Source of the DNA: a virus
Lineage: Duplodnaviria > Heunggongvirae > Uroviricota > Caudoviricetes
IMG/VR virus record: IMGVR_UViG_3300013383_000021
Coordinates: 27,767-91,766 of that record
Direction: 5' to 3' (one strand)
Length of the DNA: 64,000 bases
Part shown: piece by piece, positions 4,211 through 59,968 of the stretch
Position numbering within the stretch: position 1 is the stretch's first letter
Layout: every line of letters starts with the position of its first letter
The notes under the pieces: model-generated
Database searches by the model: none
What the model saw: only the letters and a program-made list of their open reading frames with translations
Told to the model about the DNA's origin: nothing
Made by a program: the position numbers and the translations under genes

Positions 4211-5236
4211 ATGCCACGTAAGACAAAGTATAACAATATCACTAGCCCTGCGCTTTTAGAGCAGGTTAACCCGGAAAACAAAAGATTAAAGAATGACTTC
4301 CTTACTTATCTAAAGTCAGTACAAAGAAGTAATGGAACAATTGATGGGTACTCCCACGACCTCGACATCTTCTTTGTATGGAACTTACAGAATAACAATA
4401 ACAAGTTCTTCGTTGACTTATCAAAGCGCGATTTGATCTCGTATCAGAACTGGCTTATCTACGAGAACGAAAACTCCCCCGCGAGAGTCCGGCGTCTAAA
4501 GGCCGCCCTCTCTTCCCTATCCAATTACGTGGAGAATATTCTGGATGATGAGTACGAAGGGTATCGCCCTATTGTAAGAAAGATCGAGTCTCCAATTAAC
4601 CAGCCAGTTAGAGAGAAGACTGTGTTCTCCGATGAACAATTGCAGTCGTTGCTAGACGTCCTAGTAAAAGAAGAAAAGTTTACCCAGGCGTGTGCGCTAT
4701 CACTTGCTATGTGCAGTGGCAGAAGAAAGTCAGAGCTGTTACGTTTCAAGGTAGATTGGTTTACAAGAGACAATATTATCTACGGGTCGCTGTATAAGAC
4801 TCCGGAGAAAGTAAAGACAAAAGGTGCTGGCAACGGTAAGTATCTTTACTGCTACACCCTTTCAAAAGAGTTTGATCCTTATCTGAGTCTCTACATGGGC
4901 TGGAGAAAAGAAAATAACGTGGAGAGCGAATGGCTGTTTTACGACAAAGCCGATCCCACGAAACAAATGAATATTTCTACGCTGAACAGCTGGGCTGTTC
5001 GGTTTAGCAAAATATTGGGCGTGCCGTTCTATTGGCACGCCTTGCGTCATTTCTTCACCACGAAACTTGCGCGGCTTGGTTTGCCGGATAGTGTCGTGCA
5101 GACTGTTATCGGTTGGAGTTCTGCCGATATGGTGCGGCTATATGACGATACTCCCGATGACGAACAGCTGGAAAAGTATTTTGGTGAAGATGGAATTAAA
5201 ACAGATGTTAAGGCGGCTGGGTTAGCCGACCTGTAA
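4211..5236 (+). CDS. tyrosine recombinase (XerC/D-phage integrase family), second recombinase in window
   Basis: N-terminal SAM-like core-binding region. Catalytic motifs GRRKSELL (Arg I), WHALRHFF (HxxR) and VRLY (Tyr). RBS gaggtgg. Confidence 0.75.
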   Translation: MPRKTKYNNITSPALLEQVNPENKRLKNDFLTYLKSVQRSNGTIDGYSHDLDIFFVWNLQNNNNKFFVDLSKRDLISYQNWLIYENENSPARVRRLKAALSSLSNYVENILDDEYEGYRPIVRKIESPINQPVREKTVFSDEQLQSLLDVLVKEEKFTQACALSLAMCSGRRKSELLRFKVDWFTRDNIIYGSLYKTPEKVKTKGAGNGKYLYCYTLSKEFDPYLSLYMGWRKENNVESEWLFYDKADPTKQMNISTLNSWAVRFSKILGVPFYWHALRHFFTTKLARLGLPDSVVQTVIGWSSADMVRLYDDTPDDEQLEKYFGEDGIKTDVKAAGLADL

Positions 5237-5253
5237 CACGAACGAATGAAAGG

Positions 5254-5577
5254 TTGAATGAAATGATTAACAACAAGCAATTTGTAAGACGAGTATTGGA
5301 AATGGCAGAACATCTGTCTGGCGTTAAGTATAGAGTAAAGGATGGCGAGCTGATGGTAGACGCTGTTAAGTTCGCTATTGAAAAGGCTCTGGCCGAAGGT
5401 GAAGACATCTCTCTGCACGGCTTTGGTGCTTTCAAGGTGCATGAATATCCCGAACGCCAGGCGACAATCAACGGACAGACTTATAATGTTCCTCCTCGTA
5501 AGGGTGTGAAGTTTAGCCCTGGCAAGCGGCTGCGCGATGAAGTTGCAAAGGGTCGTTTCCAGACTATTGACCTGTAA
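5254..5577 (+). CDS. HU/IHF-family nucleoid DNA-binding protein
   Basis: GFGAFKVHEYPERQATINGQTYNVPPRKGVKFSPGKRLRDEV matches the HU arm/beta-ribbon signature. Confidence 0.85.
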   Translation: MNEMINNKQFVRRVLEMAEHLSGVKYRVKDGELMVDAVKFAIEKALAEGEDISLHGFGAFKVHEYPERQATINGQTYNVPPRKGVKFSPGKRLRDEVAKGRFQTIDL

Positions 5578-6551
5578 TGGCTAAACAGAGATTAGGGGCA
5601 GCCGAACCAGCGAGAGTTAAAGGTCAGTTCAAGTGTGTTGGCTGCGGCACCGTTTACTCTACGCAGGTTCGTAACTTTAAAACTGTCCAGAGTCCGTTAT
5701 ACAAAGGGAATAACAATTATCTGTGTTGGTGCAATAGATGCGTTGACGCTCTGTACATCAAGTATAGGGATAGCGGATTATCTGAAGCGGATGCCGCTAG
5801 GAAGGTGTGCTCTAAGTTTGATATCTATTGGGACAGGGACGCCTGGGATAAGGTTTCTACGGCAAAGAAAAGTGAAAGTTCAACGATAATCAGAACTTAT
5901 TTCGACCGGATGAATCTTAATCATCACACAAAAAAAACGTACGACAATACGCTTGTTGAAGAAGCACGCCAGCAGATGTTGCTAGAGAAGCAATCCTCTA
6001 TTGGTATGAACGCTGAAGAAGATCCCGAAGTCTCCCCGGAACTAGAAGAGTTCTGGGGTAAGGGTAGAGAGCCGTGGTGCTACGCCGAGCTTCAGCATAC
6101 ATATGACAGATTGACTAATGGGTATACTGTTGATACTCCCGCTAAGGCTCTCCTGGTCAAACAGGCTTGCCTGTCTGTGTTTGAGATTGATGAGCTTCAG
6201 AAGAACGGTAAGCCTTTCGAAAAGCAGCAAGCCTCTCTGGTTAATACGCTTGGTTCATTGAATCTGAAGCCTAGCCAGATTAAAGAAGACGAGCGGAACT
6301 CTGGATTAGATGATATGCCATTTGGTGTAGCGATCCAGAAGTGGGAGCAGACACGTCCCATCCCGGAGCCGCAATCGGACTGGGTTGACATTGATAATAT
6401 CAGAAAGTACAACATGACTTGGTTCCTAGGTCCGCTATGTAATATGGTTGGGGTGGATAACAAGTACAATGAGATGTACGAAGAAGCAATGAGTGAGTAC
6501 AGGGTTGATCGTCCGGATTACTCAGAAGATGAGGATGTGGTCGATGAATGA
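5577..6551 (+). CDS. putative terminase small subunit (position-based), N-terminal Cys4 zinc ribbon
   Basis: CVGCG...CWCNRC. Sits immediately upstream of the large terminase and overlaps it (ATGA). Confidence 0.35.
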   Translation: MAKQRLGAAEPARVKGQFKCVGCGTVYSTQVRNFKTVQSPLYKGNNNYLCWCNRCVDALYIKYRDSGLSEADAARKVCSKFDIYWDRDAWDKVSTAKKSESSTIIRTYFDRMNLNHHTKKTYDNTLVEEARQQMLLEKQSSIGMNAEEDPEVSPELEEFWGKGREPWCYAELQHTYDRLTNGYTVDTPAKALLVKQACLSVFEIDELQKNGKPFEKQQASLVNTLGSLNLKPSQIKEDERNSGLDDMPFGVAIQKWEQTRPIPEPQSDWVDIDNIRKYNMTWFLGPLCNMVGVDNKYNEMYEEAMSEYRVDRPDYSEDEDVVDE

Positions 6552-8323
6552 CAGAGTACACAAAGACACGACAGATAAGACTTGACCCTACTAAGTCAAG
6601 AGAGGAGCGCGTCTTCGAAGGTGTTGCCGCCTGGGCTGCTTTCTATCGAGCAAACCCACATAGATTTGCAAAAGATTATCTAGGCATCAGCCTAAAGCCG
6701 TTTCAACAGATACTTATGGTTGAGATGGATCAGTGCAACTATACTGCTTATATTGCAGCGAGAGGACAAGGCAAGAGCTTCCTTATCTCTCTTTACTGCT
6801 GTGTGCGGTGTATCTTGTACCCCGGTACAAAAGTCTGTGTCGCTGCTGGGCGTAGGTCTCAGAGTATCAATATTCTGGAGTATATTCAGAATCAGTTCAT
6901 GGTAAACTCGCCAGGACTGAAGCGCGAGATTAAGACTATTACGACAGCCCCTAACAACCCTATTTGTATCTTTGAAAACGGGTCAACGATTAAGGTTGTA
7001 ACTGCTAGTGATACAGCTCGTGGTAACAGAGCGAACATTATTATCTGTGATGAGTTTAGAATGATCCCTGAGTCAGCCATCAATGAGGTACTAAGGAGAT
7101 TTCTTTCTGACGAACGTCATCCCCCGTATATTGATAACCCAAAGTATGCTCATATTAAAGAAAGAAACAAAGAGATCTATTTAACCTCCGCCTGGTTTAA
7201 AGATCATTGGTCGTACAAGAAGGTCGAAGATTTTTATGCCAAGATGGTGCAGGCCGGTCCGTACTTTGTGTGTGGTCTCCCTTATCAACTCTCTATTAAA
7301 GAGGGACTGTATAGTGCAGAGCAGGCAATCGAAGAAATGTCCGAAGCAACATTTAATGAGTCCCAGTGGGCGAGAGAAATGGAGTGTTGTTGGACTGGCG
7401 ACGTCGAAGGTTCTTTCTTTAACTACGAAGCGATTAACCGTACACGGCGACTGAAGTTCCCAATGTTGCCGTCCTACGCATTGCCTGGCAAGCTGGCTGC
7501 CAAGGATATGGGAATCGTGAATAAGCAGGTAGGCGAGATAAGAATCATCTCTGTTGACGTTGCTTTAATGAGTTCTACTAAAAAATCAGAGAACGACGCG
7601 ACAGCAATCTTTGTGAATCGAATGACGCCAAATGCACACGGTCGCTACTATAGTAATATTGTTTATACGGAATCTCACGAAGGTGAGACGACACAAAGGC
7701 AGGCATTGCGTATACGACGGTTGTACGAGGAATACTCAGCAGACTATATCGTGATTGACGGCAAAGGTGTCGGCGCTGGTGTTGTTGACCTGCTGTTAGA
7801 TGACATCTACAATCCTGATACAGGAGAGACGTATGGCGCTCTCTCCTGTTATAACAACCCTGACCTTGCTGCTCGGTGTACCGACATGGACGCACCAAAA
7901 GCTCTGTGGGTAATAAATAATCAAACTGCACGCTTCAATTCGGAGTGTGCTTTTTCTTTGAGAGAAGGGTTCCGCTCTGGAAAGATTCGTTTGCTTGCAA
8001 ATGAATATGACGCGGAAGATTATCTTTCTGAGGTACGTGGTTGGGGGTCTATCAACCCGGTCGAGAAGACCGTAGTGCGGCTTCCATATGTGGACACTAC
8101 GTACCTAGTTGACGAAATTATTAACTTGAAATACGAAGACACTCAATCAGGTGTAAAGGTATACGAAAAATCTGGTTATCGAAAAGACCGGTATTCATCC
8201 CTTTCTTATAACTACTGGGTTGCGTGTCAGTTAGAAGACAAGTCGCGCATGAAGAGAAAGTCTAATATAGACATCTCTGAATTGCTGCGATGCCAAAGAG
8301 CACCCAGACTTAGAAGGAGGTGA
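6548..8323 (+). CDS. terminase large subunit
   Basis: Walker A-like AARGQGKSF and Walker B IIICDEF. C-terminal nuclease-like region. 591 aa. Confidence 0.85.
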   Translation: MTEYTKTRQIRLDPTKSREERVFEGVAAWAAFYRANPHRFAKDYLGISLKPFQQILMVEMDQCNYTAYIAARGQGKSFLISLYCCVRCILYPGTKVCVAAGRRSQSINILEYIQNQFMVNSPGLKREIKTITTAPNNPICIFENGSTIKVVTASDTARGNRANIIICDEFRMIPESAINEVLRRFLSDERHPPYIDNPKYAHIKERNKEIYLTSAWFKDHWSYKKVEDFYAKMVQAGPYFVCGLPYQLSIKEGLYSAEQAIEEMSEATFNESQWAREMECCWTGDVEGSFFNYEAINRTRRLKFPMLPSYALPGKLAAKDMGIVNKQVGEIRIISVDVALMSSTKKSENDATAIFVNRMTPNAHGRYYSNIVYTESHEGETTQRQALRIRRLYEEYSADYIVIDGKGVGAGVVDLLLDDIYNPDTGETYGALSCYNNPDLAARCTDMDAPKALWVINNQTARFNSECAFSLREGFRSGKIRLLANEYDAEDYLSEVRGWGSINPVEKTVVRLPYVDTTYLVDEIINLKYEDTQSGVKVYEKSGYRKDRYSSLSYNYWVACQLEDKSRMKRKSNIDISELLRCQRAPRLRRR

Positions 8324-38994: not shown

Positions 38995-39015
38995 TCGTAA
39001 CGCCCCGTTAAATCC

Positions 39016-39031
39016 TTTTTTTTTTTTTTTT
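39016..39031. repeat. homopolymeric tract T16 (A16 on - strand)
   Basis: Sixteen consecutive T, approx. 20 nt upstream of the start of the 38994 gene. Confidence 0.9.
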
Positions 39032-39039
39032 CGCCCCTG

Positions 39040-39525
39040 TCAGTACTCAACTAAATCCGTGACTTCGCAGTTAAGCACTCCAGCCAGTTTCCCTAACTGC
39101 TCAATACTCTTAGGAGACCTCCTTCGGGCCTCCCAGTCCGCGATCGTGCGTACCGGGACACCGGATGCCTTAGCCAGCTCTGCACGAGACAAACCGTGCT
39201 CCTTACGCTTCCTCTCTATCTTAGTCCCAATCCCTCGCACAGTGCGGTAATACGCGAGCTGCCAGGTGCCTTGCTGCTCTAAGTTCAGATGTGTCCGAAA
39301 ATCCTTTTTCATATGCTCCGGTGTGAGCGAATCAACTCTTTCTGCGATCAAATCAGTGATGTCGTCATCACTTTTATGAAGCTGGTGCAATTTTTGCACA
39401 GCGAAAGTGAAACCCCGAAGCGGCCAACACATTGCGTTATACCGATCCGTTTCGTTCCATCCTACTCTCTGTTCGATGAGAGCATAGGCTTCCGCAAGTC
39501 CCTGAATCTGTTCTGTTGTAAGCAT
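39040..39525 (-). CDS. transcriptional regulator with C-terminal XRE-family HTH
   Basis: GLSRAELAKASGVPVRTIADWEARRRSPKSIEQLGKLAGVLNCEVTDL at the C-terminus. The N-terminal approx. 100 aa are unknown. Confidence 0.65.
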   Translation of the reverse strand: MLTTEQIQGLAEAYALIEQRVGWNETDRYNAMCWPLRGFTFAVQKLHQLHKSDDDITDLIAERVDSLTPEHMKKDFRTHLNLEQQGTWQLAYYRTVRGIGTKIERKRKEHGLSRAELAKASGVPVRTIADWEARRRSPKSIEQLGKLAGVLNCEVTDLVEY

Positions 39526-39548
39526 TTAAAATCTCCTCCTTCTGGATA

Positions 39549-39619
39549 AATGCGTCTATTTACAGGCAAATTATAACGCGATTGCGTCTATTTGTCAACG
39601 GTTTTAGACGCATTTTTTG
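39549..39619. promoter_or_regulatory. three copies of a TGCGTCTATTT operator-like repeat (two direct, one inverted)
   Basis: aatgcgtctatttacagg (39549-39566). attgcgtctatttgtcaacgg (39581-39601). Inverted copy tagacgcatttttt (39606-39619). All lie upstream of the XRE gene start. Confidence 0.45.
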
Positions 39620-39641
39620 ACCGCGTCCGTCTCGACACGAT

Positions 39642-39667
39642 AAAAGCCCGGCCAGTTGGCCGGGCTA
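39642..39667 (-). terminator. rho-independent terminator (minus-strand orientation)
   Basis: aaagcccggcc-agtt-ggccgggct. The U-run is present only on the - strand side. Confidence 0.6.
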
Positions 39668-39715
39668 AAAAGTAAAGCATCCTCAAGAATATAATATAAG
39701 ATCTTTCTTGAGTGG

Positions 39716-39748
39716 CATTTATTAAGATTTATTTAAGAATTTATTATG
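39716..39748. repeat. three direct ATTTATT(A/T)AAGA-like repeats (candidate integrase arm-type sites)
   Basis: catttattaaga, tttatttaagaa and tttattatg in an AT-rich region beside the att core. Confidence 0.3.
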
Positions 39749-39897
39749 TATAGATTAAAATTGATATGCAAAGTCAGGTCGCATCCACAAAATTCAATTA
39801 CCACCATTTAAATACTTCTATTTAGAAATTGTTTTGGGTCAAAAGACAATTTTCCTTTATTACGCTGACGAAATATTTATTCCAAAATGGTTATGAA

Positions 39898-39930
39898 AAA
39901 AGCCTAGAATATAAAAATTCTAGGCTTTTC
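39898..39930 (-). terminator. rho-independent terminator downstream of int (minus strand)
   Basis: aagcctagaat-ataaaaa-ttctaggctt, with a T6 run on the - strand. Confidence 0.7.
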
Positions 39931-39953
39931 CCTTACACCTTACGCACCTTATC

Positions 39954-48591: not shown

Positions 48592-49568
48592 CATAAATGG
48601 ACTATGTTTTCACCCTAGGCACTCTAGGGGCCTGGTCTTTCGGGCTTGCACCCTACTCTACTCGCTTCTTACTTTCGATAGTCTCTACACATTTACAATA
48701 AACATTTTAGATTTTTATTCTTTTAAACCAAACGGGTGCTTTGCTCCATTCGGCTTTCCCTCTTTTTATCATGCCGTTAATATTAGAAATGCCATAGTGC
48801 CGTTCTGCTAAAGCCGCGCTGGCAAAACGCTTGACTTCTTCATCCGTCTCACGATCATAAGCCGCAACAATCTCATGTTCTCTCGGGCCCTCACCGTGAA
48901 ATGTGAAGTATGTCTGTTTTCTTAGCTTGTCACCTTTGTCCCTACATTGCCGCGCGATTGTCGAGGCATGAATACCTGTTGCCCGCGCCGCCTCTTTAAC
49001 CGACCCAAATTCTGCTATAAGTATATTTGTTGCAGAGTCATATTGATCAACAGGCATACTTTGGGAGTCTTCCCAACCCATGTCGTTTTTTGCTAGCCCG
49101 TCATCAAACGCTTGCTTTGTATTTTCTGAGATAGTTCCCCATCTTAGATTACTCATGTCGTTATTTTTCTTGTCATTGTCAATATGCATTACTATTGGCA
49201 AGCCACATGGATTAGGAATAAATGCGTTAGCCACAAGTCTATGTACTCGTTTACTAATGTTCTTACCGGGGTATTTTATTCCGCAATACCAATAGCCGTG
49301 GTTTGAATATTTTGCCTTAAGAAAATATTCCCCTAGACGTGGATTACCTTGTCTAGTTTCTACTCCATACACATTACCTCTTGGGTCTATGTAATCCAAC
49401 GCTCCTTCAATCAGAGCCGCGTCTTCTGGTAGCTTGTTTATGTAATTTGTCAAACAACCACCTTTCTTTTTTTATGTAAAATGTTTATTGATTTAGCACG
49501 GCGTTCTTGGATTCGCCGTTTTAGCCAGGTTTTTCATTTCACCTTTCGATGAAAGCCCCCACGGATTC
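48592..49568 (-). mobile_element. group I intron 3 of nrdD carrying an HNH homing endonuclease
   Basis: Exon frames are rejoined as YFTP|AENLCY (T4 NrdD: STPAENLCY). 5' splice site follows U. The intron ends in G. R-like gagactatcg and S-like atagtcc elements lie on the - strand. Confidence 0.65.
48707..49453 (-). CDS. HNH homing endonuclease (intron-encoded) with C-terminal NUMOD-like DNA-binding region
   Basis: HRLVANAF...HIDNDKKNNDMSNLRWGTISEN. Confidence 0.8.
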   Translation of the reverse strand: MTNYINKLPEDAALIEGALDYIDPRGNVYGVETRQGNPRLGEYFLKAKYSNHGYWYCGIKYPGKNISKRVHRLVANAFIPNPCGLPIVMHIDNDKKNNDMSNLRWGTISENTKQAFDDGLAKNDMGWEDSQSMPVDQYDSATNILIAEFGSVKEAARATGIHASTIARQCRDKGDKLRKQTYFTFHGEGPREHEIVAAYDRETDEEVKRFASAALAERHYGISNINGMIKRGKAEWSKAPVWFKRIKI

Positions 49569-50117
49569 AGGGGTAAAATACACACCAAAGTTCAATTTAT
49601 ATTTTTCTTTAAACTTCGCGCATCTCTCCTTAAATAAAGCCTCGATATGTTTTGCTAAGGCCATACCTTGCGGTGTTGTGTGATTACACCCGATAAGAAT
49701 TTGTAAAGCTTCCGCTAGGCCGATCTGGCCCACGGCCAAAGTTCCATGTTTTAGGGCAGATTGGATACCCTCTTCGGGGATATACCCCTCCATAATTCTG
49801 TTATCATACATAAACTTTGCAGACTCCGGTGGCTGAGAACAAACCAGCTCAAATCGCTCAAGCAGCATGTCTTTAGCTTCGTAGATTTTCTTATCAAGCA
49901 AACTCATAAACTCTCTCACGCAATCGTATAGCATTACGTCGTCGCAATTTGTTCTGTCAATGATCGCTAACGGGGTAAATCTATTGTCCTCCTCGACCTT
50001 CTTCACTGCCTCAATAGCAAGGGTTGGGAGAATAATTGTGACCGGGCAGATATTACCTCTGCCGTCTTTCAGTTGGCCAAGACCGTTGATATCAAACCCG
50101 TTTGCAGTACGGCATCC
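49569..50117 (-). CDS. nrdD: nrdD exon 3
   Basis: GCRTANGFDINGLGQLKDGRGNICPVTIILPTLAI... and TLAVGQIGLAEAL...FGVYFTP align with T4 NrdD MGCRSF...DGRNNLGVVTLNLPRIAL and SLGYIGIHE...FSLYSTP. Confidence 0.7.
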
Positions 50118-50446
50118 CCAATATGTTCATACAAGTTCGCTACGCTTGTACCGTCCTCCAAGGACCGCTATATGTTGCCATATAGTTCAGACTATGTCAT
50201 ACCCCTGTATTGCTCTATCCTTTACAGGGGCCTCATCTTTTCGCGTCGCTTGACGCTACTCTACTCACTTCTTTGCACCAGTGTTTCTCTTGTGCTATGT
50301 TTTCGATAGTCGTTTAGCTTTTAACCAGCCTCAAACAGGTATTTAGCACGTGGTTATCCTTATGCCGATTTTATAAGGACTTCCCATGTTTAGATGAGTT
50401 TTTCAAAACACATTGCTGCGTTAAGCCACAGTTTCTTTATGGTGCT
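50118..50446 (-). mobile_element. group I intron 2 of nrdD (ORF-less, approx. 330 nt)
   Basis: Removes the in-frame stop between exon 2 (...DNPCTYF) and exon 3 ((G)CRTANGF). Carries R-like cgactatcg and S-like atagtct elements, and the ctactctactc motif shared with intron 3. Confidence 0.6.
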
Positions 50447-50738
50447 AAAGTATGTACAAGGATTATCTTTGTCATACCCTTCGTTACCTGACCAGTCTAC
50501 ATTCGCGTAGTTCGGGTACAACCTTTGCGCGGTAGACTTCAGTGCTAATTGAAACAAGTCATAGTTTGGATCTCCAGGTTTTCTGTTAATACCTCGTTTA
50601 CACTGAAAGATTCCGCAAGGAAAAATAGGAGTCTTGTGCAGCTTCCCCGTCCCGTTAATAGAGTTCTCTAGAAGTGCTTTAATTACCATCCTGCCCTCTG
50701 GGAGTGTACAAGTCCCATAATTCAATGAAGTGAAAGGT
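50447..50738 (-). CDS. nrdD: nrdD exon 2
   Basis: PFTSLNYGTCTLPEGRMVIKALLEN...KTPIFP...DPNYDLFQLAL...YP aligns with T4 NrdD TPFVTITFGTGTDWTERMIQKAILKN...ITPIFPK...DPNYDIKQLAL. Confidence 0.7.
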
Positions 50739-51903
50739 CAAATTTGTTATCATAAAAGTTTATTATCTTTTACCTCCGGAGCTTTCGCCCTTTTACCCAC
50801 CATCATTTGGTGGCGGTTCAGCATACGTATTCATCTTCGGCTTCACCCGTTAAGATGCGGACACTCTTGGCGGTATTATATTCTCTATACGAGGGTCAAC
50901 CGCTATGCGTTACGATACCATAGGATTTTTATTTCCTTTGGTTATCTCGGCGCTACCATATTTGTACGCTTCTGCGTACACTAAATCACAAAGACGCTTT
51001 TTTCTTTCCATATACACATGTGCGTCATCATACATATAATCTATTAGCTTTAACATGCTACTGTTTTTTCTATATGCTATCGACCACAGGTTATCTTTTT
51101 CTCTATAAAGGTTCACCTTTTCAACCTCGGCATTAGCGAATAGGAACTCGACCAAGTCTTCTAGAAATTGTTTGTTCCCTTTGCAAAAACGAACCGCTTT
51201 CGTGTGGGACTTTCTTCCATGTGCCGCTCTTGAGTAATACGACACAGAACCGTCCCCGTCCAGTACCCCTCTGATAAAATGTCTGTAGAACTGTTTCGGG
51301 ATATTTTTGGGGAACGCAACAGAAAGAGATCTGTCCGGTGCGATACCATACTGCTTTAAATCAGTCACCATCTTACTCGACAGTATGCTTAACGAACAAC
51401 AGCCCCGCCCATCTCCTGTCACTCTTTTGTTCGAATTAAGCTCTTCTTTTAGCTTCTCTAGTAAGTAGGCGTCTGATTTTTGGAGCGTCAGCGAGACTAG
51501 TGGTTGTCTGCCTTTTGTGCTATGAATACAGCCGTCTGTTATGATCAGCCCTAAAAAGTACGCTTTACATTCTGTGTTAATCGTCTCGAAATAATCCTCT
51601 ATTAAATCAGGCGAAAACAAACGCACTTTTGAGTATCTCTTAACGCGGTATTCATTCAGCACCTTTATTACGGATGGTATACTAATATTGAACGTCTCCA
51701 CAAGATGCTCAAGAGTCATTGGTCTGCTCTTGTAGTATCTAACCAGCGCTTCTTTCACTTCCTTTGTTATATGCTTTGGTATATCTCTCACCTTCTTTCT
51801 GCGACATACAGCGATGATATAAAATGATTTGTGATTTATTAGGCTCCGCCGATATTGCCCTTTATTGTTTCAGTATATTTCTATAAAGCCAGCCACTTAT
51901 CTT
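50739..51903 (-). mobile_element. group I intron 1 of nrdD carrying a LAGLIDADG homing endonuclease
   Basis: Proposed junction ...SRSGNQ(L)|PFTSLNYG. 5' splice site after tt. The intron ends in G. Stop codons lie on both sides of the endonuclease ORF, so this is not an intein. Confidence 0.6.
50910..51791 (-). CDS. double-motif LAGLIDADG homing endonuclease (intron-encoded)
   Basis: AYFLGLIITDGCI and FIRGVLDGDGSV. Confidence 0.85.
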   Translation of the reverse strand: MRDIPKHITKEVKEALVRYYKSRPMTLEHLVETFNISIPSVIKVLNEYRVKRYSKVRLFSPDLIEDYFETINTECKAYFLGLIITDGCIHSTKGRQPLVSLTLQKSDAYLLEKLKEELNSNKRVTGDGRGCCSLSILSSKMVTDLKQYGIAPDRSLSVAFPKNIPKQFYRHFIRGVLDGDGSVSYYSRAAHGRKSHTKAVRFCKGNKQFLEDLVEFLFANAEVEKVNLYREKDNLWSIAYRKNSSMLKLIDYMYDDAHVYMERKKRLCDLVYAEAYKYGSAEITKGNKNPMVS

Positions 51904-52886
51904 AACTGGTTTCCACTTCTTGATTGCAGTGTGTTAAGGTTATGGTACATGCCCTCAGCCGCTTGCATGGTTTCACGTTCCGTCATTTTCAAAGCATACC
52001 GATATACCCTGTCGTTTTTCTTCCAGAACGGATCGTCAATACTCCTATCTTTGTCCGAGCCTTTCATAGAGAAGAGTTTCGAATTAGTATCGTCGCATAA
52101 CCATTCAAGTCCATCCCTGTAGTGTTTCCAAAAACTCTTTCTTACATATGGAACCATTGTCCAGTCAATATGGCTCGCAGAGACACCACCATATTGCTGG
52201 AGGCTCTGCAGCTGGAAGATAACAGCAACCAACTGAAAGGCCGTCCCTACAGAACCAGCAGAACGAATGTCGGTTTGCCTTGTATCAAATCCATTTTCCA
52301 GCAATTTATCAAAAGGAATTGTGAGACAGTTGTGACTGCCCACCGCATAGCTTGACAAGTCATGGATATAAATCTCATTGTTCAAATGATTATTTCTCGC
52401 CATCTCTGACATGCAATAATCCAGCGCGTATTGCTTCATAACAACAGCGTTTGCCTCGCCCATACGCCCACCAAACGATCTCTCGTCAACATTTGCATTC
52501 TGGTTTTGCACGTTGCTCGCCATAAGCTTCTCAGATACGGCTTTAATTAGGTCACTGCCACGCTCTCTAGCTTTCGTCCGCTCATTTCTATATAAGATGT
52601 ACGCTTTCGCCACATCTTTTCTGTCGGACTCCATAAGTTTGGCTTCAACAATGTCCTGAATTTCCTCGACAGACTTGCTTTGCTTCATTTCAGCAGTCAC
52701 AGCAACCGCAATTTCCCTTGCAACAGCTGCACATTGCCCATTTTCTTCCCCATCGACGCTCACAAACGCCTTCTTCACCGCTTCTTCTATCTTTTTAGGG
52801 GAAAATTTCTCTAACCGACCGTCTCTTTTGATTACAAATAGCTCGATAATCAACCACAACCTTCCACAATTTCGCTTGCGACCCAA
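51904..52886 (-). CDS. nrdD: nrdD exon 1 (ATP-cone and N-terminal catalytic region)
   Basis: VIKRDGRLEKFSPKKIEEAV (ATP-cone). NANVDERSFGG. IYIHDL. The start codon is uncertain because the region upstream of the ATP-cone is poorly defined. Confidence 0.75.
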
Positions 52887-54004: not shown

Positions 54005-57000
54005 TCACTCCAATACTTTGTAGTCGTTCAAATACCAATACCCCTTCTTGTTTTTGTACAGACCCGCACCAAACAGGATATTGTATTGAGCGAAAGGCTT
54101 CTTATCAAAAATAGACTTACGAACCGTGAGTCTTGCCTCGTTACCAGTGCCGATAGACCGCACTGTCGTGGCAACACCCCACACTCCGCTAGGTCCGTTC
54201 AGGTCAAACGTCTCAAGAACAAGTAACTTTCTTCTATCTTGCGGATCATTGGTCGTGATATCTATGTACCCCATTAGTCCAAGCTGATCCATGATCCTGC
54301 TCCTCACATCAGCCTCTTCAATACCAAGACTTAGAACATTGCGCTCACATTCCTCCAACAAGCCGGGCATATCTGTGATTGTATAAGACTTTAGCTCATT
54401 GCTTTTCACGCCAACGTCTGTAGCGTGTCGCTTTACGATTTTACACATCGGCCCTTCTTTAAGCTTTGTCTTCTTAATAGATTTGGCCACGCCATCATTA
54501 AAGAACTTGAAGATGTCGTACATTCTTTGCAACTCACGGGTGTTGCCATACTCAGAAAAAAAGCCTATCCGAATTAGATTTAGCAGTTGCCGCTCATTGC
54601 ATGACGTCTCTGACCGAATTCTAAGAAGTGTTTCCATAAATGACTCCGGTTTCTTCTGGTGATACATGGCATAGAGTTGCTGCGGCACAACTTTGTTAAG
54701 ATACTTTACAGAGCTGATGCCTTTAGACACAATCTTTCTATCCGGGTCAAACATGTACTGGTCAGATGATGCACCAAACACCGGAGGTGTAATCTTCAGC
54801 CCGTATATCTGTGCAAGCTTAGTGCCATTTCTAATATCCTCATCTTTCGCAGGGTTGTTCAGATAACTTGTCACGAATTCATACGGATGATAGCAACGCA
54901 ACCACGCGCACAAAAAGCCGACCAGACAATAGCTGATAGAGTGATTGTAGTTAAACATATATCTTGAGCTGTCCTTGATAACCTGGATGAACTCTTTTGC
55001 TTCCTCCTCGGCGATGACCCTTGGTTTATCTGACTTCTGACAATAGCCCTCTAAGATTTTAGGAAGAGCGGCCTCCAGTTCGTCTTCATGCTTTCTTGCA
55101 ATGTGACAACGTACTGTATCGGCCTCACCACCAGATAGCCCACAAACCTCCTGCAAGAACTTGATAATGTCTTCCTGATACACTAGTCTGCCATACTGAT
55201 CTTTTAGCAGTTCGTCAATCAGTGGGGACGGATTCTTATGTGGGATTCTAGCGATCAATTCTTCTCTGTATGATGCACCACCAGGTCGAATGCACGCTGT
55301 CACCAACGACATATCAAAGATTGACTTTGTGTTAAAGTCCTTCAGCATCTTACCTGCAAAGGGAGACTCCATCTGGAAGATACCAATGTTGGAAACCATC
55401 ATATCTTCCCAAACTCTCTGGTCGTCCCAATCTATTTCGTGTGACTTTGGGTATGGAATGTTCGCCAGTTTGCAAGCATCACGAATAATTTGTAGTGTGT
55501 TTAGAACAAGCATGTCATACTTAACGAGAGATACTTCGTGGATTTCTTCCATGTCAATCTGGAGCACAATACCACTATCCTTGTGATGAAAAACGCCATA
55601 GTTATCATCTAGTGTAACCGGGCTAATTACGATGCCAGCCGGGTGTACAGATTGTGACACTCTTGTATTCAGGAACCCGTCAAAATAATAGAACATTTCC
55701 TTGTATTTCCCTCTGCACGTCTCTGCGTCCTTTCCGTAATCTGCTTTTATCTTTGCCGCTAGACTCACTGGATATGGGTTTTCGTTTTTGTCCGCTTCCG
55801 GATGTTGCTCTGTCCATTTATGTCTTAACCCACGCACAATCTCTTCGATAGTCGCCAAGCCTTTTAATGTGCCGCATGATGGAACGAACGCAGTCTTCCG
55901 TTGCCCGAATCGTTCAATAATGTAATTGAAGATCTTAGGCCGGTCATCTTCAATAACGTCTGTGTCGATATCACCCACTTCAATTCGGTCCTCATTGCAA
56001 AAGCGGCTGAATACCGTGTGCCATGTTTCCGGGTTAACGTCTGTAATATCTGTCACATAAGCAACTCTTGACCCAGCTACACTGCCACGCCCAGGACCTG
56101 TTACAATCCCATTCTCATGGCACCATGTAAGGATCTCGCTCATGGATTGCATGAACCCGCACATCCCAAGTTTTGTGAATACTCTAAGTTCTTCTTTAAT
56201 TGCGTCTCGGAACGCTTGCTCTTGCTCTCTTGGGATGATTCCGGCCTCTAACTTTGCTTCTAGCTTTTCGTTAATATTCTGGATAAATTTTTCTCTATCC
56301 TCTTCTGCAGACCCATAAAGGATTGGGTATTTCAAAGAAGTGTCTAATTCAAACTCCTCAACCTGATTTGCCATCAAGACTGTATTGTCTATCGCGGCTT
56401 GCCACACTTCTTCTGGGATAGAGTCCTGCTTTCTAAATGCTTCTTCCAATTCCTCGCGCGACTTATACGTTAGATCAAAATCATCTTCCGTGTCATAATG
56501 TTTGTTCTTTGCATAAGCAAGTAACGATCGGCATTCAGCGTAGTATTGGTCGATGCTGTGTGTGTCTGTTGCCGCAATCAAAGGAATGCCATACCTCTGA
56601 GACAACGCTGCCAGATGTCTGTTGTAGACAACCTGATCTTCACAGTCGTGCGGTTGAATCTCGAGGTAGTCATACTTCTTTACGAGCTTCTCGTAGTACG
56701 GGTGGCTTACATCCAGCTTGTTCAGCGGCGAAGCTAAACAAGCGGACATCTTGATAATGTTCGGAGAGATATTCAAGAACTCATCAAATGAAAGCCGCCC
56801 AACATAGTATTTGTGATCCTCGTCGGTTGACATACTGAGCAACTTATTGAGTTCCAAAAAACCTTGCCGGTTCTTCGCTATCAGAATTGTGTGGTAGTTA
56901 TCTCTTACTTTCTCCTGCAGAGAGTCCGTTAAATAAATCTCCACACCATGCAGGTACTTGATACCTGCTGCATCGCAAGCCATCTTCTTGGCAACCCATC

Positions 57001-57139
57001 CACGGGTATTGCCGTGCTCAGTAAAACAAATAGCTTTTTGTCCGAGCTGCTTTGCCTTCTCTACGTAAAGGTTAAAATCTGTCGTCGAGTCCAACAGCGA
57101 ATAGTCACTGTGAACATGGTACGCAACATAGTTGTCCAA
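54005..57139 (-). CDS. DNA polymerase III alpha-subunit-like replicative polymerase (DnaE/PolC family)
   Basis: N-terminal PHP domain AYHVHSDYSLLDSTTDF...CFTEHGN. 1044 aa, uninterrupted. Confidence 0.85.
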   Translation of the reverse strand: MDNYVAYHVHSDYSLLDSTTDFNLYVEKAKQLGQKAICFTEHGNTRGWVAKKMACDAAGIKYLHGVEIYLTDSLQEKVRDNYHTILIAKNRQGFLELNKLLSMSTDEDHKYYVGRLSFDEFLNISPNIIKMSACLASPLNKLDVSHPYYEKLVKKYDYLEIQPHDCEDQVVYNRHLAALSQRYGIPLIAATDTHSIDQYYAECRSLLAYAKNKHYDTEDDFDLTYKSREELEEAFRKQDSIPEEVWQAAIDNTVLMANQVEEFELDTSLKYPILYGSAEEDREKFIQNINEKLEAKLEAGIIPREQEQAFRDAIKEELRVFTKLGMCGFMQSMSEILTWCHENGIVTGPGRGSVAGSRVAYVTDITDVNPETWHTVFSRFCNEDRIEVGDIDTDVIEDDRPKIFNYIIERFGQRKTAFVPSCGTLKGLATIEEIVRGLRHKWTEQHPEADKNENPYPVSLAAKIKADYGKDAETCRGKYKEMFYYFDGFLNTRVSQSVHPAGIVISPVTLDDNYGVFHHKDSGIVLQIDMEEIHEVSLVKYDMLVLNTLQIIRDACKLANIPYPKSHEIDWDDQRVWEDMMVSNIGIFQMESPFAGKMLKDFNTKSIFDMSLVTACIRPGGASYREELIARIPHKNPSPLIDELLKDQYGRLVYQEDIIKFLQEVCGLSGGEADTVRCHIARKHEDELEAALPKILEGYCQKSDKPRVIAEEEAKEFIQVIKDSSRYMFNYNHSISYCLVGFLCAWLRCYHPYEFVTSYLNNPAKDEDIRNGTKLAQIYGLKITPPVFGASSDQYMFDPDRKIVSKGISSVKYLNKVVPQQLYAMYHQKKPESFMETLLRIRSETSCNERQLLNLIRIGFFSEYGNTRELQRMYDIFKFFNDGVAKSIKKTKLKEGPMCKIVKRHATDVGVKSNELKSYTITDMPGLLEECERNVLSLGIEEADVRSRIMDQLGLMGYIDITTNDPQDRRKLLVLETFDLNGPSGVWGVATTVRSIGTGNEARLTVRKSIFDKKPFAQYNILFGAGLYKNKKGYWYLNDYKVLE

Positions 57140-57142
57140 CCA

Positions 57143-59968
57143 TCAGCCTCCTCCCTGTATCATGCCATACACTTCCGACTCAGCATCCAATGGAGCACAT
57201 GGAACGCGGGTAGTGTAAATCTTGTCATCCCATTTATATCTGCGGTCGTACTCTTCATAGTTCGTGAAGAACCTCCGGCACGCCTCGTCGTAGTACAACC
57301 CAAGTTCAAAGCCAGCTCTCCCTCGCATACGATCCTTTGTTACGGACACAACACAGGAATACTGCGAGAACTTTGACGTTCCTTGCTCTTTCTCGTCCTG
57401 CCGTACTCTCCGTAGAGACAATGTACGGTGCGCGAGATTTGGGAGGTTCGACGTGCCGCCGATGTCATACAACGCGACCGCCCCCGGCGTTGTCCCGCTG
57501 GGAATCTTTCTCGGATGTGCAACCAGAATCACACACACATTGAATTTTGACGCGAACTGAATCAGCCAGTTGACCAGCTCGGTCTGCTTGTCATACTTGT
57601 TCTCGTCAGAAGAATGCAAGTCTATGGTCATTAGGTTGTCCAACAGGAACAACTTGCTGCCATACTTTCTGGCTGACGCTTCCATAGATTCTTGGATCGA
57701 CTCGATGTCGTTCGGCCACTCGTTCTTATACACGAACCACTGGCCTCTGTAACACTCATTGATTTTCTCTTTCGCTTCTCTCGAAGCAACCCAATAGATT
57801 GCGCCGTTCTTGCCGGTATGTTCTTCGACGTTTCTCGGCCCGGCAAGTAAGTAGTTCATCCACGCCTTACTCATGAAGTCCGGCAACTCTCTTGAAAAGA
57901 TCCAAGCACCTCTGTTTTGCTCAAGCGCATTACAGATAAGCTGGTACAAGAAGCTGGTCTTACCGGAACCCGGCGTGCCAGTCACGAGCGTTAACGTCCC
58001 GAAGAACAGCTTGAATAATTCTCTATCAAGACTTTCAATGCCAAAGTAAATCCCATCCAAGTCACTAATGTTAACATCCTCGACGTCGCTAAGATCCATT
58101 ACACTGTCAATCGGAGATTCTTTCGCGCTAAGGATTGCGTTCATCACTGCCTCTTTCCCCTGGTAATAAAGCAGCTCGTTCAAATCTTTAATATGCTTGC
58201 CAGTCGCTTCATCTACCGGAGGGATATCTACGACCTTTGTTCTCCAAGAACCAAGTCTAGGGCATACATCTTTCGCCATTTGATAGCCCGCCTTATCATT
58301 GTCAGAGCAGATGATAATCTCGGAAAACTGGTCTAGCCAATCCATATTCTCTTCAATCCAGTGGTGATTCTGAGAGCCTAAAGGAACGCTCACCGCATTC
58401 GTGTAGCCGGACTCAATAGCAGCCATCGCATCGCAATTACCCGTAACAAAAATCGTCCCGTACTGCCTTACTAAGATCATTCCGCTTGGCACTGTCACAC
58501 AATAAACGGTACCAACGTAGTGTTCTGTTTCATATGTAATGTCGTTTAGGTCTGCTTTTTTCTTACCTGTAATCGATACTCGATAGATCCCATCCAGCGT
58601 AGATAGCCGGTACCTAACAGAGCATTGCTGCCCGCTTGTGTGAGCAATCGTCTGTATTACATTAGCGTTGCTCAACTTACAGGCATAACCCGCAGTCCAC
58701 TTCTGAAACCGCCGAAGAATTATGAGCTTTTGTACCTCAGACGTGGTGCTAACCCACGAATAAGAGATTGGTTCTATATGAACGTGTGGCGGAATCCTGA
58801 ACAATATTCTGGAACCATAGTCAGAGAGTGGTATCTCGGTGTGATCAACAGACAATTTCTTGAGAAGCCGTCGCAGTCTGCGCCGTTTTCTTTTCTCTGT
58901 TGTCAAGAACCTGTACTCGCTATTGTTTTTGTCGTAACTGCAATTCTCCGATATGGCAATTGATAACTCAATCTCGTCTCTAGAGAGAGAAAACCCATTA
59001 CCTGAATGACTTGTTGTGATTGGAGCCGATTTATACCAGCCATCCGTCAGCTTTCCCGGCTTCGTCTTTTCCAAAAAACCGAGAGCGTTATAAGTTACAA
59101 CATTGTGGCCTCCAGTTACACACGACACATAGTTGTCTGTAGCAATAAAGGAGAGAAAACCTTCGTAGTGCTCGTTAATAATTGCGGTTGGTCTTACAAA
59201 TTTGCCGTGCAGCTTCGACCAAGTACCAGCAAAGAGGTCGTCCGCCCACACCGAATACACGTCCTGCCCGTGATACTCATCAAACCGAACCCACCCGTCA
59301 GGCGTTAGAATTTCTGCGTCGCCAGGAAAGCATTCGCCTTCAGTTATCAATAACGGCTGACTTATGTTTACCCTGTTCATATTGAAAAGGAGCGGACGAG
59401 TGTCCGCTCCTTTCTGACACCAGTTCTTAACCTCACCTTTTGACTTGTCGATTTTTCTAGCCGGTCGGTACTTCACCATCGTCAACACGTCGTTCGTATC
59501 GTAGTAGTTGAACACGGCGTTACCATGTTCGTCTTCCCGTACATCACAATGATCTAGTGTTTTCTCACTAATCTTTCTCGTAGCCATATACTGGTTTACG
59601 ATTGACCGGTCTCTTAACGGGGTCTGCTGGGGATACCGATAACCCCTGTGAGTCTTGATGCCTTTCTCGCCAAAGCTATAAGCCATCCCAGCTTCTTCAA
59701 AAGTTTTCTCCGCTGCTTCAAGATATGTATTACCAGACATCACATAGGCGTCAATGATATCAATGTTGCAGCCGCACCCAAAGCAGTGGAAGCTATAGGC
59801 TTTCGGGTTGTAAATAAAGCTCGGAGTGTCTTCCTGATGTACCGGGCACAATGATTTCAAGTTAGACGGATCAAACAATTTAAGGTTAAGCGTTTCAGCA
59901 ATCAAGAATGGAGTCCTATCTCCGATTTTCTCTTTCGCCTTCTGTAATTTCTCCTTTTCAATCAGCAC
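57143..59968 (-). CDS. primase-helicase (DnaG-type zinc finger plus TOPRIM, and DnaB-like helicase) containing an intein
   Basis: Zinc finger CPVHQ...HCFGCGC. TOPRIM LLITEGE[intein]CDAMAAIESG. Walker A GTPGSGKTS. Walker B LFLLDN. Confidence 0.8.
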   Translation of the reverse strand: MLIEKEKLQKAKEKIGDRTPFLIAETLNLKLFDPSNLKSLCPVHQEDTPSFIYNPKAYSFHCFGCGCNIDIIDAYVMSGNTYLEAAEKTFEEAGMAYSFGEKGIKTHRGYRYPQQTPLRDRSIVNQYMATRKISEKTLDHCDVREDEHGNAVFNYYDTNDVLTMVKYRPARKIDKSKGEVKNWCQKGADTRPLLFNMNRVNISQPLLITEGECFPGDAEILTPDGWVRFDEYHGQDVYSVWADDLFAGTWSKLHGKFVRPTAIINEHYEGFLSFIATDNYVSCVTGGHNVVTYNALGFLEKTKPGKLTDGWYKSAPITTSHSGNGFSLSRDEIELSIAISENCSYDKNNSEYRFLTTEKRKRRRLRRLLKKLSVDHTEIPLSDYGSRILFRIPPHVHIEPISYSWVSTTSEVQKLIILRRFQKWTAGYACKLSNANVIQTIAHTSGQQCSVRYRLSTLDGIYRVSITGKKKADLNDITYETEHYVGTVYCVTVPSGMILVRQYGTIFVTGNCDAMAAIESGYTNAVSVPLGSQNHHWIEENMDWLDQFSEIIICSDNDKAGYQMAKDVCPRLGSWRTKVVDIPPVDEATGKHIKDLNELLYYQGKEAVMNAILSAKESPIDSVMDLSDVEDVNISDLDGIYFGIESLDRELFKLFFGTLTLVTGTPGSGKTSFLYQLICNALEQNRGAWIFSRELPDFMSKAWMNYLLAGPRNVEEHTGKNGAIYWVASREAKEKINECYRGQWFVYKNEWPNDIESIQESMEASARKYGSKLFLLDNLMTIDLHSSDENKYDKQTELVNWLIQFASKFNVCVILVAHPRKIPSGTTPGAVALYDIGGTSNLPNLAHRTLSLRRVRQDEKEQGTSKFSQYSCVVSVTKDRMRGRAGFELGLYYDEACRRFFTNYEEYDRRYKWDDKIYTTRVPCAPLDAESEVYGMIQGGG
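58436..59332 (-). mobile_element. intein (approx. 299 aa) inserted in the primase TOPRIM E-G-x-x-D motif
   Basis: Block A CFPGDAEILTPDGW. Block B-like ...TGGHNVV. Blocks F/G VYCVTVPSGMILVRQYGTIFVTGN followed by +1 Cys. Removal restores ITEGECDAMAAIE. Confidence 0.7.

Follow-up and report, generated by a model that had tools for sequence, protein, structure and literature searches.

A highly probable TOPRIM-site intein with a predicted inactive LAGLIDADG domain in the primase-helicase of an uncultivated gut phage

The stretch of 64,000 nucleotides analyzed here (the window; positions 27,767 to 91,766 of the Caudoviricetes record IMGVR_UViG_3300013383_000021 of IMG/VR) carries on its minus strand an open reading frame (ORF) for a 941-aa primase-helicase precursor, in which the first TOPRIM motif is interrupted by 299 residues. 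The locus raises the question of whether this insert is an intein, as was proposed in a sequence-only reading of the window, and whether its splicing and endonuclease functions have both been retained. The segment 58436..59332, lying between Glu212 and Cys512 within the motif E-G-E/x-D (slashes mark intein junctions throughout), is very probably an intein. This interpretation is supported by the precise absence of the insert from orthologues, the conservation of splicing residues, a predicted fold combining HINT and LAGLIDADG domains, and homology to a curated intein inserted at the same site. Coordinates of all features are listed in Table 1.

The host protein contains the Pfam domains Zn_ribbon_DnaG (PF01807; CHC2 zinc ribbon, residues 25–98), Toprim_2 (PF13155), and DnaB_C (PF03796; RecA-type helicase). 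With the zinc ribbon, TOPRIM and a DnaB-like helicase of the RecA fold on a single chain, it belongs to the T7 gp4/Twinkle type. The insert, residues 213–511, begins with CFPGDAEILTPDGW, ends with VYCVTVPSGMILVRQYGTIFVTGN (...VTGN) and is followed by Cys512; these limits, and the corresponding nucleotide positions, are exactly those given by the sequence-only reading. Excision in silico yields a 642-aa protein reading ...LLITEGE-CDAMAAIESG..., so that the TOPRIM motif is recovered as had been predicted, and the domain scores rise: the Toprim_2 match increases from 31.0 bits in the precursor (from residue 510, profile position 5) to 38.9 bits in the spliced sequence (profile position 2), and the Toprim_4 match from 20.5 to 26.5 bits. 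The alignment of the exteins to T7 gp4-like primases, suggested as a check, was carried out as well; in the PDB, the spliced sequence matches T7 gp4 (5ikn, 6n7i), Aquifex DnaG (2au3) and human Twinkle (8e2l). In its alignment with DnaG, LITEGECDAMAAIESG stands opposite ILVEGYFDLLRLFSEG, and the insert is placed two residues past the Glu at the TOPRIM glutamate position.

Intein-less versions of the gene define the insertion point to the residue. The homologue encoded by the human-gut phage contig MT835469.1 (638 aa) lacks a counterpart to the 299-residue insert: in the BLASTP alignment residues 1–212 of the window protein pair with its residues 1–212 without gaps (61% identity), and residues 512–923 with its residues 213–625 (47% identity). 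At the DNA level, three intein-less alleles (P0162, P0164, and MT835469) read ...GAAGG(C/G)GA(A/G) followed by GCA, CTT or ACG and then GAC, encoding EGE/A-D, EGE/L-D or EGE/T-D; the site in P0164 is ...GAAGGCGAG/CTTGAC.... In the window and in four close intein-bearing relatives, the insert is directly followed by TG(C/T) GA(T/C), coding for Cys-Asp, the protein thus reading EGE/intein/C-D. Among the 120 best homologues, 69 are intein-less, 33 carry an intein at the TOPRIM site only, 9 in the Walker A motif only, and 9 at both sites, which gives 42 TOPRIM-site inteins in total. The insert therefore does not behave as a native domain of homologous primases, an outcome that had been named as grounds for rejecting the intein: it is precisely missing from the 69 intein-less proteins. 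Such patchy presence at catalytic motifs is typical of inteins. The second intein, found in 18 of the 120 homologues (including P0158, P0160, P0163, P0167, and P0004), is related to the first and lies between Gly and Ser of Walker A (..TPG/C...GN/SGKT).

An exhaustive phmmer search with the insert against 1.84 billion cluster representatives retrieved 1422 representatives at E<=1e-3, of which 260 reach E<=1e-10, while a word-indexed homologue search with the insert alone returned only three proteins. The family counts given here and below refer to the 143 full-length matches among the best 150 of the exhaustive search. All 143 start with Cys and 140 end with Gly-Asn; at the +1 position, 121 have Cys, 18 Ser and 4 Thr. 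The junctions EGE/C...GN/CD are found in 104 of them, and the remaining matches occupy other sites, for example EGEFD/C (two residues further into TOPRIM), G/SGK(T/S) of Walker A, and ribonucleotide reductase. A profile built from 33 relatives, with the window sequence left out, aligns to residues 213–511 along its entire length of 304 positions (247 bits; E 1.5e-71, calculated for Z=1e6) and has no other match when the window is translated in six frames.

The window intein retains every conserved splicing residue of this family. In block A these are the nucleophile Cys1 (143/143), Thr10 (141/143), Gly13 (143/143), and Trp14 (131/143), and in block B the T-x-x-H motif formed by Thr73 at B:7 (141/143) and His76 at B:10 (143/143). 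They are joined by Cys278 at F:4 (141/143), Arg289 (137/143), Gly298 at G:6 (141/143), and the terminal Asn299 at G:7 (141/143), with Cys in the +1 position (...VTGN/C). Position G:5 is Thr297, Ser or Thr being present there in 112 of the 143 members (57 and 55, respectively), and B:12 is Val78, a column with Met in 51, Leu in 49, Ile in 28, Val in 8, and Trp in one. The penultimate His, which is common in inteins and not obligatory, is replaced by Gly298, and F:4 is Asp in most class 1 inteins. Judging from the family columns, the penultimate Gly and the Cys at F:4 are hallmarks of this intein family rather than defects. The earlier description of the Gly-Asn end as a less frequent variant should accordingly be revised, as it is the rule in the family (140/143).

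The same insertion point is used by curated inteins of mycobacteriophages. Kelley et al. (2016; mBio, PMC5050341) described eight “TOPRIM” inteins with an insertion point at the active site. In a tblastn search of deposited phage genomes, residues 171–612 of the window protein align in a single match to primases of cluster A1 mycobacteriophages (about 30% identity, E 6e-35). One of them, Turj99 gp53, annotated as “intein-containing topoisomerase primase,” reads ...VAIAEGE/CLRGDAEVLTPEGW...VYCVSVPSTAFLVRMGGCISVTGN/CDTIAA, with the C-terminal junction VTGN/CDT. The family profile matches its residues 113–424 (356 bits), a span of 312 residues equal to the 936-nt interval (39932..38997) published for the Turj99 intein in the supplement of Kelley et al. 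(PMC5050341). The insertion point is thus the same and the homology is full-length, so the window intein and that of Turj99 gp53 represent the same TOPRIM-site allele. The cluster A1 inteins (Turj99 gp53 and BillKnuckles gp54) share with the window intein the site ..EGE/C-D.., homology over the whole length, Cys1, Cys at F:4, the terminal Gly-Asn, Cys+1, and the inserted LAGLIDADG domain. They differ in that the host protein is a stand-alone TOPRIM primase of about 210 aa in high-GC actinophages, whereas the window gene codes for a fused zinc-ribbon/TOPRIM/helicase protein of a gut phage with about 45% GC, and in that they retain both LAGLIDADG aspartates (SADA, WDGN), which the window copy has lost.

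Gly-Asn ends are compatible with splicing in this group. Mycobacteriophage inteins often have Gly, Lys, or Ser in place of the penultimate His, and the Bethlehem RDF intein, which ends with Gly-Asn, splices completely, its Gly-to-His change slowing the reaction (PMC5050341). The Turj99 gp50 RDF intein (CSWTN...VWCLRV...LTGN/S), orthologous to that of Bethlehem, is matched by the family profile with E 2.8e-28, and the Bethlehem result therefore provides experimental proof of splicing for the same superfamily, not for a TOPRIM-site member. The intein of Bethlehem gp51, an RDF of the metallophosphoesterase type, has Cys1, Cys at F:4 (VWC) and the terminal Gly-Asn in common with the window intein. 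It differs in host protein, site and +1 residue (Ser), and its endonuclease is active enough to be toxic on cloning (PMC5050341). DnaG-type primase inteins have been listed for bacteria (PMC4760082) and actinobacteriophages (bioRxiv 10.1101/2025.01.02.630785). The bacterial DnaG and DnaB inteins, with 14 DnaG inteins listed by Novikova et al. (2016; PMC4760082), sit in cellular genes, unlike that of the window; they resemble it in general theme, as inteins at catalytic motifs of the replisome.

The fold of the intein was predicted with AlphaFold2 from a 34-sequence alignment (mean predicted local distance difference test score, pLDDT, 92.8; predicted template modeling score 0.91). About 105 N-terminal and 35 C-terminal residues are beta-rich, and the middle region has the order alpha-beta-beta-alpha-beta-beta, with long helices at residues 118–130 and 199–213. 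In a Foldseek search of the PDB, inteins carrying endonucleases ranked first (TliVMA 7qsu, PhoVMA, PI-SceI, PI-PfuI; E 3e-11 to 2e-6), the best being TliVMA (E 3.1e-11, query TM-score 0.66), and were followed by the WhiA N-domain, I-Tsp061I and I-DmoI, then by mini-inteins and the hedgehog Hint domain. These matches identify a HINT fold with an inserted LAGLIDADG core, in which two helices flank beta hairpins. TliVMA and PhoVMA (7qsu, 7qst), PI-SceI (1vde) and PI-PfuI (1dq3) likewise have a HINT domain with LAGLIDADG inserted between blocks B and F and reach query TM-scores of 0.57–0.66 at sequence identities of only 8–13%. In these inteins, unlike in that of the window, the endonuclease sites are active, F:4 is Asp and the penultimate residue is His; they are also larger, and PI-SceI has an additional DNA-recognition region that the window intein lacks.

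At the sequence level, assignment to the Hint superfamily comes from the relatives. Nine members of the 34-sequence alignment match the Pfam family Intein_splicing (PF14890) and nine match LAGLIDADG_3 (best E 3.4e-9). The profile of this alignment, which includes the window sequence, has the AceL NrdHF intein (6zgq; Hoffmann et al., 2020, PMC7891396) as its best PDB sequence match (E 3.5e-5). Like the window intein, that intein has an aliphatic B:12 residue together with Cys at F:4 and Thr at G:5, and it lacks His at F:13 and G:6; it differs by its Ala start, its naturally split organization, the absence of an endonuclease domain, and another host protein. The evidence for the intein is therefore drawn from relatives and fold, not from a direct match to a curated profile. 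The Hint profile search proposed by the sequence-only reading thus failed for the insert itself and succeeded for its family; the absence of a direct match, proposed as refutation, would have wrongly rejected the intein, because the direct scans are empty while the evidence at the family level is strong.

The inserted domain retains its fold and not its catalytic residues. In active LAGLIDADG enzymes an acidic metal-binding residue occupies the C-terminal end of each of the two LAGLIDADG helices; in the window intein the final residues of the predicted helices are Asn130 and Thr213, the two motifs ending with ..AISEN and ..R...WTAG. Motif 2 has changed at further positions, the family columns having Asp213 in 137, Gly214 in 133, Asn215 in 115, and Glu208 in 139 of the 143 sequences (Table 1). 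Other conserved positions are altered too (R136N, Y139E, K146E, K187E, P190S, G247D, and W249I). The embedded endonuclease or linker domain expected by the sequence-only reading is thus present as an endonuclease fold, with both catalytic aspartates replaced. Among 43 TOPRIM-site inteins compared, comprising that of the window and 42 from the closest homologues, both acidic residues are present in 34, the first only in one (P0118), and neither in eight. The latter are those of the window, of P0153–P0156 (73–94% identical proteins) and of the P0157/P0158/P0004 group. All eight share Glu-Asn in motif 1, and their motif 2 differs by lineage (TAG, TGG, TRR, SGG, GNG), so the active site was probably lost once, in the ancestor of this clade. 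Since both metal-binding aspartates and several basic residues have been replaced, loss of cleavage activity is predicted and cleavage-dependent homing has most likely stopped.

Selection was evaluated by the ratio of non-synonymous to synonymous substitution rates (dN/dS; Nei-Gojobori method) in five pairs among the genes of the window, P0153, P0276, and P0278. The ratio is 0.010–0.015 for the exteins, 0.07–0.09 for the splicing domain and 0.07–0.11 for the endonuclease-fold domain, and in every region of each pair the proportion of non-synonymous changes is far below that of synonymous ones (Fisher p<=1e-18). The values for the exteins indicate that the host gene is functional. Across the Asp-less clade synonymous sites are saturated. 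The simplest explanation for the constraint on the endonuclease-fold domain would be that the primase is essential and inactive unless spliced, so that a mutation misfolding the inserted domain would be lethal.

The window protein is present in the public collection (European Nucleotide Archive contigs of up to 106 kb), and at 90% identity it falls into a cluster of 116 members. Within the cluster the exteins are 98–100% identical, and the inteins fall into a common type (95–100% mutual identity), that of P0276 (89–90% to the common type), and that of the window (84–86% to all others). With dN of 0.04–0.10 in the intein versus 0.008–0.012 in the host protein, the intein gains amino-acid changes approximately 5–10 times faster than its host. 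In the pair P0153/P0278 dS is lower in the intein than in the extein. Intein-specific horizontal transfer was considered for this pair and rejected, as a sliding-window count locates the extein divergence in a 3' mosaic segment (codons ~780–915). Between the window and P0154 the inteins diverge more than the exteins would predict, which is only suggestive of a mosaic history.

Several observations weigh against reading the insert as a splicing-competent class 1 intein with a dead endonuclease. Scans of the insert itself against Pfam and NCBIfam gave no Hint, intein or LAGLIDADG match even at E<=1, and phmmer against PDB sequences gave nothing but a chance match (E 0.34). Splicing is experimentally supported for a related intein of a different host protein, not for a TOPRIM-site member, and Cys at F:4, Thr at G:5 and the lack of His at G:6 or in block F are class 3-like features. 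Purifying selection on the endonuclease-fold domain is as strong as on the splicing domain, and the Glu129-Asn130 pair is invariant in the “dead” clade; simple decay would predict neither. The empty Pfam scan would suit a native accessory domain, or a non-splicing Hint or bacterial-intein-like domain, kept in the mature protein. That explanation has hardly any probability, given that the insert splits the TOPRIM motif, is precisely absent from most of the best homologues, carries every splicing residue, among them the terminal Asn and a +1 Cys where empty alleles have Ala, Leu, or Thr, and recurs at unrelated sites (Walker A, ribonucleotide reductase, RDF phosphoesterase). The decayed endonuclease motifs, and the position of the window intein as the outlier of its 90% cluster, could also be taken as signs that splicing activity has been lost and the gene has become a pseudogene; this is very improbable in view of the low dN/dS in both extein and splicing domain, the intact catalytic splicing residues, and an unbroken ORF in a conserved replication module beside DnaE. 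As to chemistry, Cys278 at F:4, rather than Cys1, might attack the N-terminal junction or relay the acyl group in a class 3-like or hybrid route, with a branched intermediate at block F and subsequent transfer to Cys+1. The near-invariant Cys at F:4, the frequent Ser or Thr at G:5 and the missing histidines point in this direction. The family triplet (M/L/I/V)-C-(T/S) moreover equals the M-C-T of AceL NrdHF, the best PDB match of the family profile and a proven class 3 intein lacking both histidines, in which Cys at F:4 is the proven first nucleophile (PMC7891396), and some close relatives have Trp at B:12 (HNW). However, Cys1, which class 3 chemistry does not require, is invariant (class 3 inteins having no Ser, Thr, or Cys at position 1), Trp at B:12 is absent from the window intein and from nearly the whole family, the +1 residue is Cys while that of class 3 inteins is nearly always Ser or Thr (PMC5222942), and Kelley et al. 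grouped the related RDF intein with class 1 phage inteins (PMC5050341). Such a route is unlikely, though it deserves to be reckoned with, and the class 3-like residues make the order of the thioester intermediates uncertain.

The endonuclease-fold domain allows two further readings. The intein could still be mobile, using a non-canonical active site, for example as a nickase acting through Glu129, and homing into intein-less alleles. This would be in line with the full-sized and confidently folded domain, its dN/dS of about 0.1, the invariance of Glu129-Asn130 in both sub-clades lacking Asp130, the patchy presence of the intein among close orthologues, and the disproportionate divergence between the inteins of P0154 and the window. 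It is nevertheless improbable: both canonical metal-binding aspartates are gone, motif 2 has no acidic residue in any of its lineage-specific forms, several conserved basic or structural residues have been substituted, in part with reversal of charge (R136N, K146E, K187E, G247D, W249I), the P0153/P0278 divergence in the 3' extein resembles general phage mosaicism, and the Asp-less clade appears monophyletic with its exteins. Alternatively, the domain may have been exapted as a DNA-binding or nicking module, or for conditional maturation of the primase. Its long retention with synonymous sites saturated, a dN/dS equal to that of the splicing domain and the invariant Glu-Asn pair make this conceivable, if rather doubtful; the intein would then be domesticated rather than selfish.

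The preferred reading remains that of an intein that splices and no longer homes. It may be filed as a class 1 intein with Cys at F:4, since Cys1 is present as in the standard signature; more generally, by its sequence signature (Cys1 with Cys at F:4, an aliphatic B:12 residue and a Gly-Asn end) the family stands between class 1 and the atypical class 3 intein AceL NrdHF. According to this reading, translation of the gene gives a 941-aa precursor whose primase active site is split. About 110 N-terminal and 40 C-terminal intein residues would form the HINT domain, where Cys1, helped by Thr73 and His76, would form a thioester at the N-terminal junction, as expected for class 1. The N-extein would then be moved onto Cys+1, Asn299 would cyclize, and an S-to-N acyl shift would produce the peptide bond of a 642-aa enzyme reading ...ITEGECDAM.... 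Its inheritance is now probably vertical, the intein being an obligate passenger of an essential gene, and purifying selection would keep both of its domains foldable and competent for splicing.

Table 1. Coordinates of the primase-helicase gene, its intein and other homing elements in the window.
Feature	Position	Strand	Basis
Host gene, precursor of a T7 gp4/Twinkle-type bifunctional primase-helicase	57143..59968 (stop codon included)	-	ORF list, Pfam, PDB matches
N-extein, residues 1-212, ending ...NISQPLLITEGE; first Glu of EGE is the TOPRIM glutamate position	59333..59968	-	Alignment to MT835469.1 homologue
Putative intein, residues 213-511, 299 aa	58436..59332	-	Translation, family profile, fold, homology
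C-extein, residues 512-941: remaining TOPRIM (CDAMAAIESG...DND), linker, helicase	57146..58435	-	Alignment to intein-less homologue, Pfam
Block A, CFPGDAEILTPDGW; Cys1 as putative N-terminal nucleophile	59291..59332	-	C1, T10, G13, W14 conserved in 131-143 of 143
Nine-residue loop LFAGTWSKL, intein residues 33-41	59210..59236	-	Gap at each position in 137-143 of 143 representatives
Block B, VTGGHNVV; T73 (B:7), H76 (B:10), V78 (B:12)	59096..59119	-	Register set by profile alignment to AceL NrdHF
Inserted LAGLIDADG endonuclease-fold domain, intein residues ~111-258, predicted inactive	58559..59002	-	AlphaFold2, Foldseek, LAGLIDADG_3 matches of relatives
Motif 1 remnant IELSIAISENC (family ..AVSAD..); Asp130 to Asn, Ala129 to Glu	58940..58972	-	Asp in 139 of 143
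Motif 2 remnant IILRRFQKWTAGYA (family ..E...WDGN..); Asp213Thr, Gly214Ala, Asn215Gly, Glu208Arg	58682..58723	-	Column counts
Block F, GTVYCVTVPSGMILVRQ; Cys278 at F:4, no block F histidine	58463..58513	-	C in 141 of 143, R289 in 137 of 143
Block G and +1, TIFVTGN/C; Thr297 (G:5), Gly298 (G:6), Asn299 (G:7), Cys512 (+1)	58433..58456	-	GN in 140 of 143
Walker A, GTPGSGKT, residues 664-671, uninterrupted in the window gene	57956..57979	-	Coordinate check
nrdD fragment, ATP-cone and NRDD profile positions 2-157	51897..52886	-	Profile
nrdD fragment, NRDD positions 297-414	49539..50006	-	Profile
Free-standing LAGLIDADG ORF	50910..51791	-	nrdD region
Group I intron (RF00028), 59.3 bits, E 1.8e-13	50168..50448	-	Rfam
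HNH_3+NUMOD1 endonuclease ORF	48707..49453	-	nrdD region

Except for a few scattered residues, the family representatives have nothing that corresponds to the loop at intein residues 33–41. In P0153–P0156 it varies in sequence and length (LFAGTWSKL in P0153, LLSVRSTKL in P0154), and the block of residues 31–40 has the lowest confidence in the model (pLDDT 66). Two ORFs of 112 and 100 aa lie antisense to the intein (58625..58963 and 59006..59308, plus strand). They have no Pfam match; these are therefore probably chance ORFs, and their identification as antisense homing endonucleases was rejected.

The gene belongs to a phage replication module coding for an ERF-type recombinase, a PD-(D/E)XK nuclease, the primase-helicase and a DnaE-type polymerase, in the same gene order as in related contigs. 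The DnaE gene of the window (54005..57139, 1044 aa) is unbroken. On contig L008, which carries the intein-less P0164, the DnaE-type polymerase (4944..7929) is called in two pieces separated by a 300-nt gap, one of 626 aa with PHP and DNA_pol3_alpha and the second with the finger domain, which suggests another intervening element in this relative. The nrdD gene of the window, coding for anaerobic ribonucleotide reductase, is fragmented as well (48707..52886, minus strand) and is accompanied by a group I intron and endonuclease ORFs; the related contig L003 has the same split nrdD with a LAGLIDADG ORF. The window genome is thus rich in homing elements.

When 24 kb of the window were compared by megablast with deposited phage genomes, a short nrdD match (358 nt) to Thomasclavelia phages was the only result; none of these genomes is close. 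An intein-less homologue of the primase-helicase is encoded in a Holdemanella biformis genome (53% identity over a BLASTP local alignment that spans 46% of the query). Together they make a host among Erysipelotrichales a plausible guess, and nothing more. In databases, the nearest NCBI nr entry (DAT55605.1, a member of the same 90% cluster) is labelled “MAG TPA: DNA directed DNA polymerase [Caudoviricetes sp.],” and a JGI copy “KaiC/GvpD/RAD55 family RecA-like ATPase”; neither name mentions a primase or an intein. The gene is better described as an intein-containing primase-helicase.

New here is a member of the TOPRIM-site intein family in an uncultivated gut phage, the family having been described already at the same site in mycobacteriophages, and an intein specialist would find none of these results surprising. 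Catalogued so far in a handful of mycobacteriophages, the TOPRIM-site intein belongs to a large family of more than 1400 clusters at 50% identity, widespread in metagenomic phage primase-helicases and with sister copies in the Walker A motif. The members of this family are candidates for testing how class 3 chemistry arose. In the clade of the window, where the endonuclease active site is gone and the domain is still under selection, they bear on the question of how inteins persist after homing stops.

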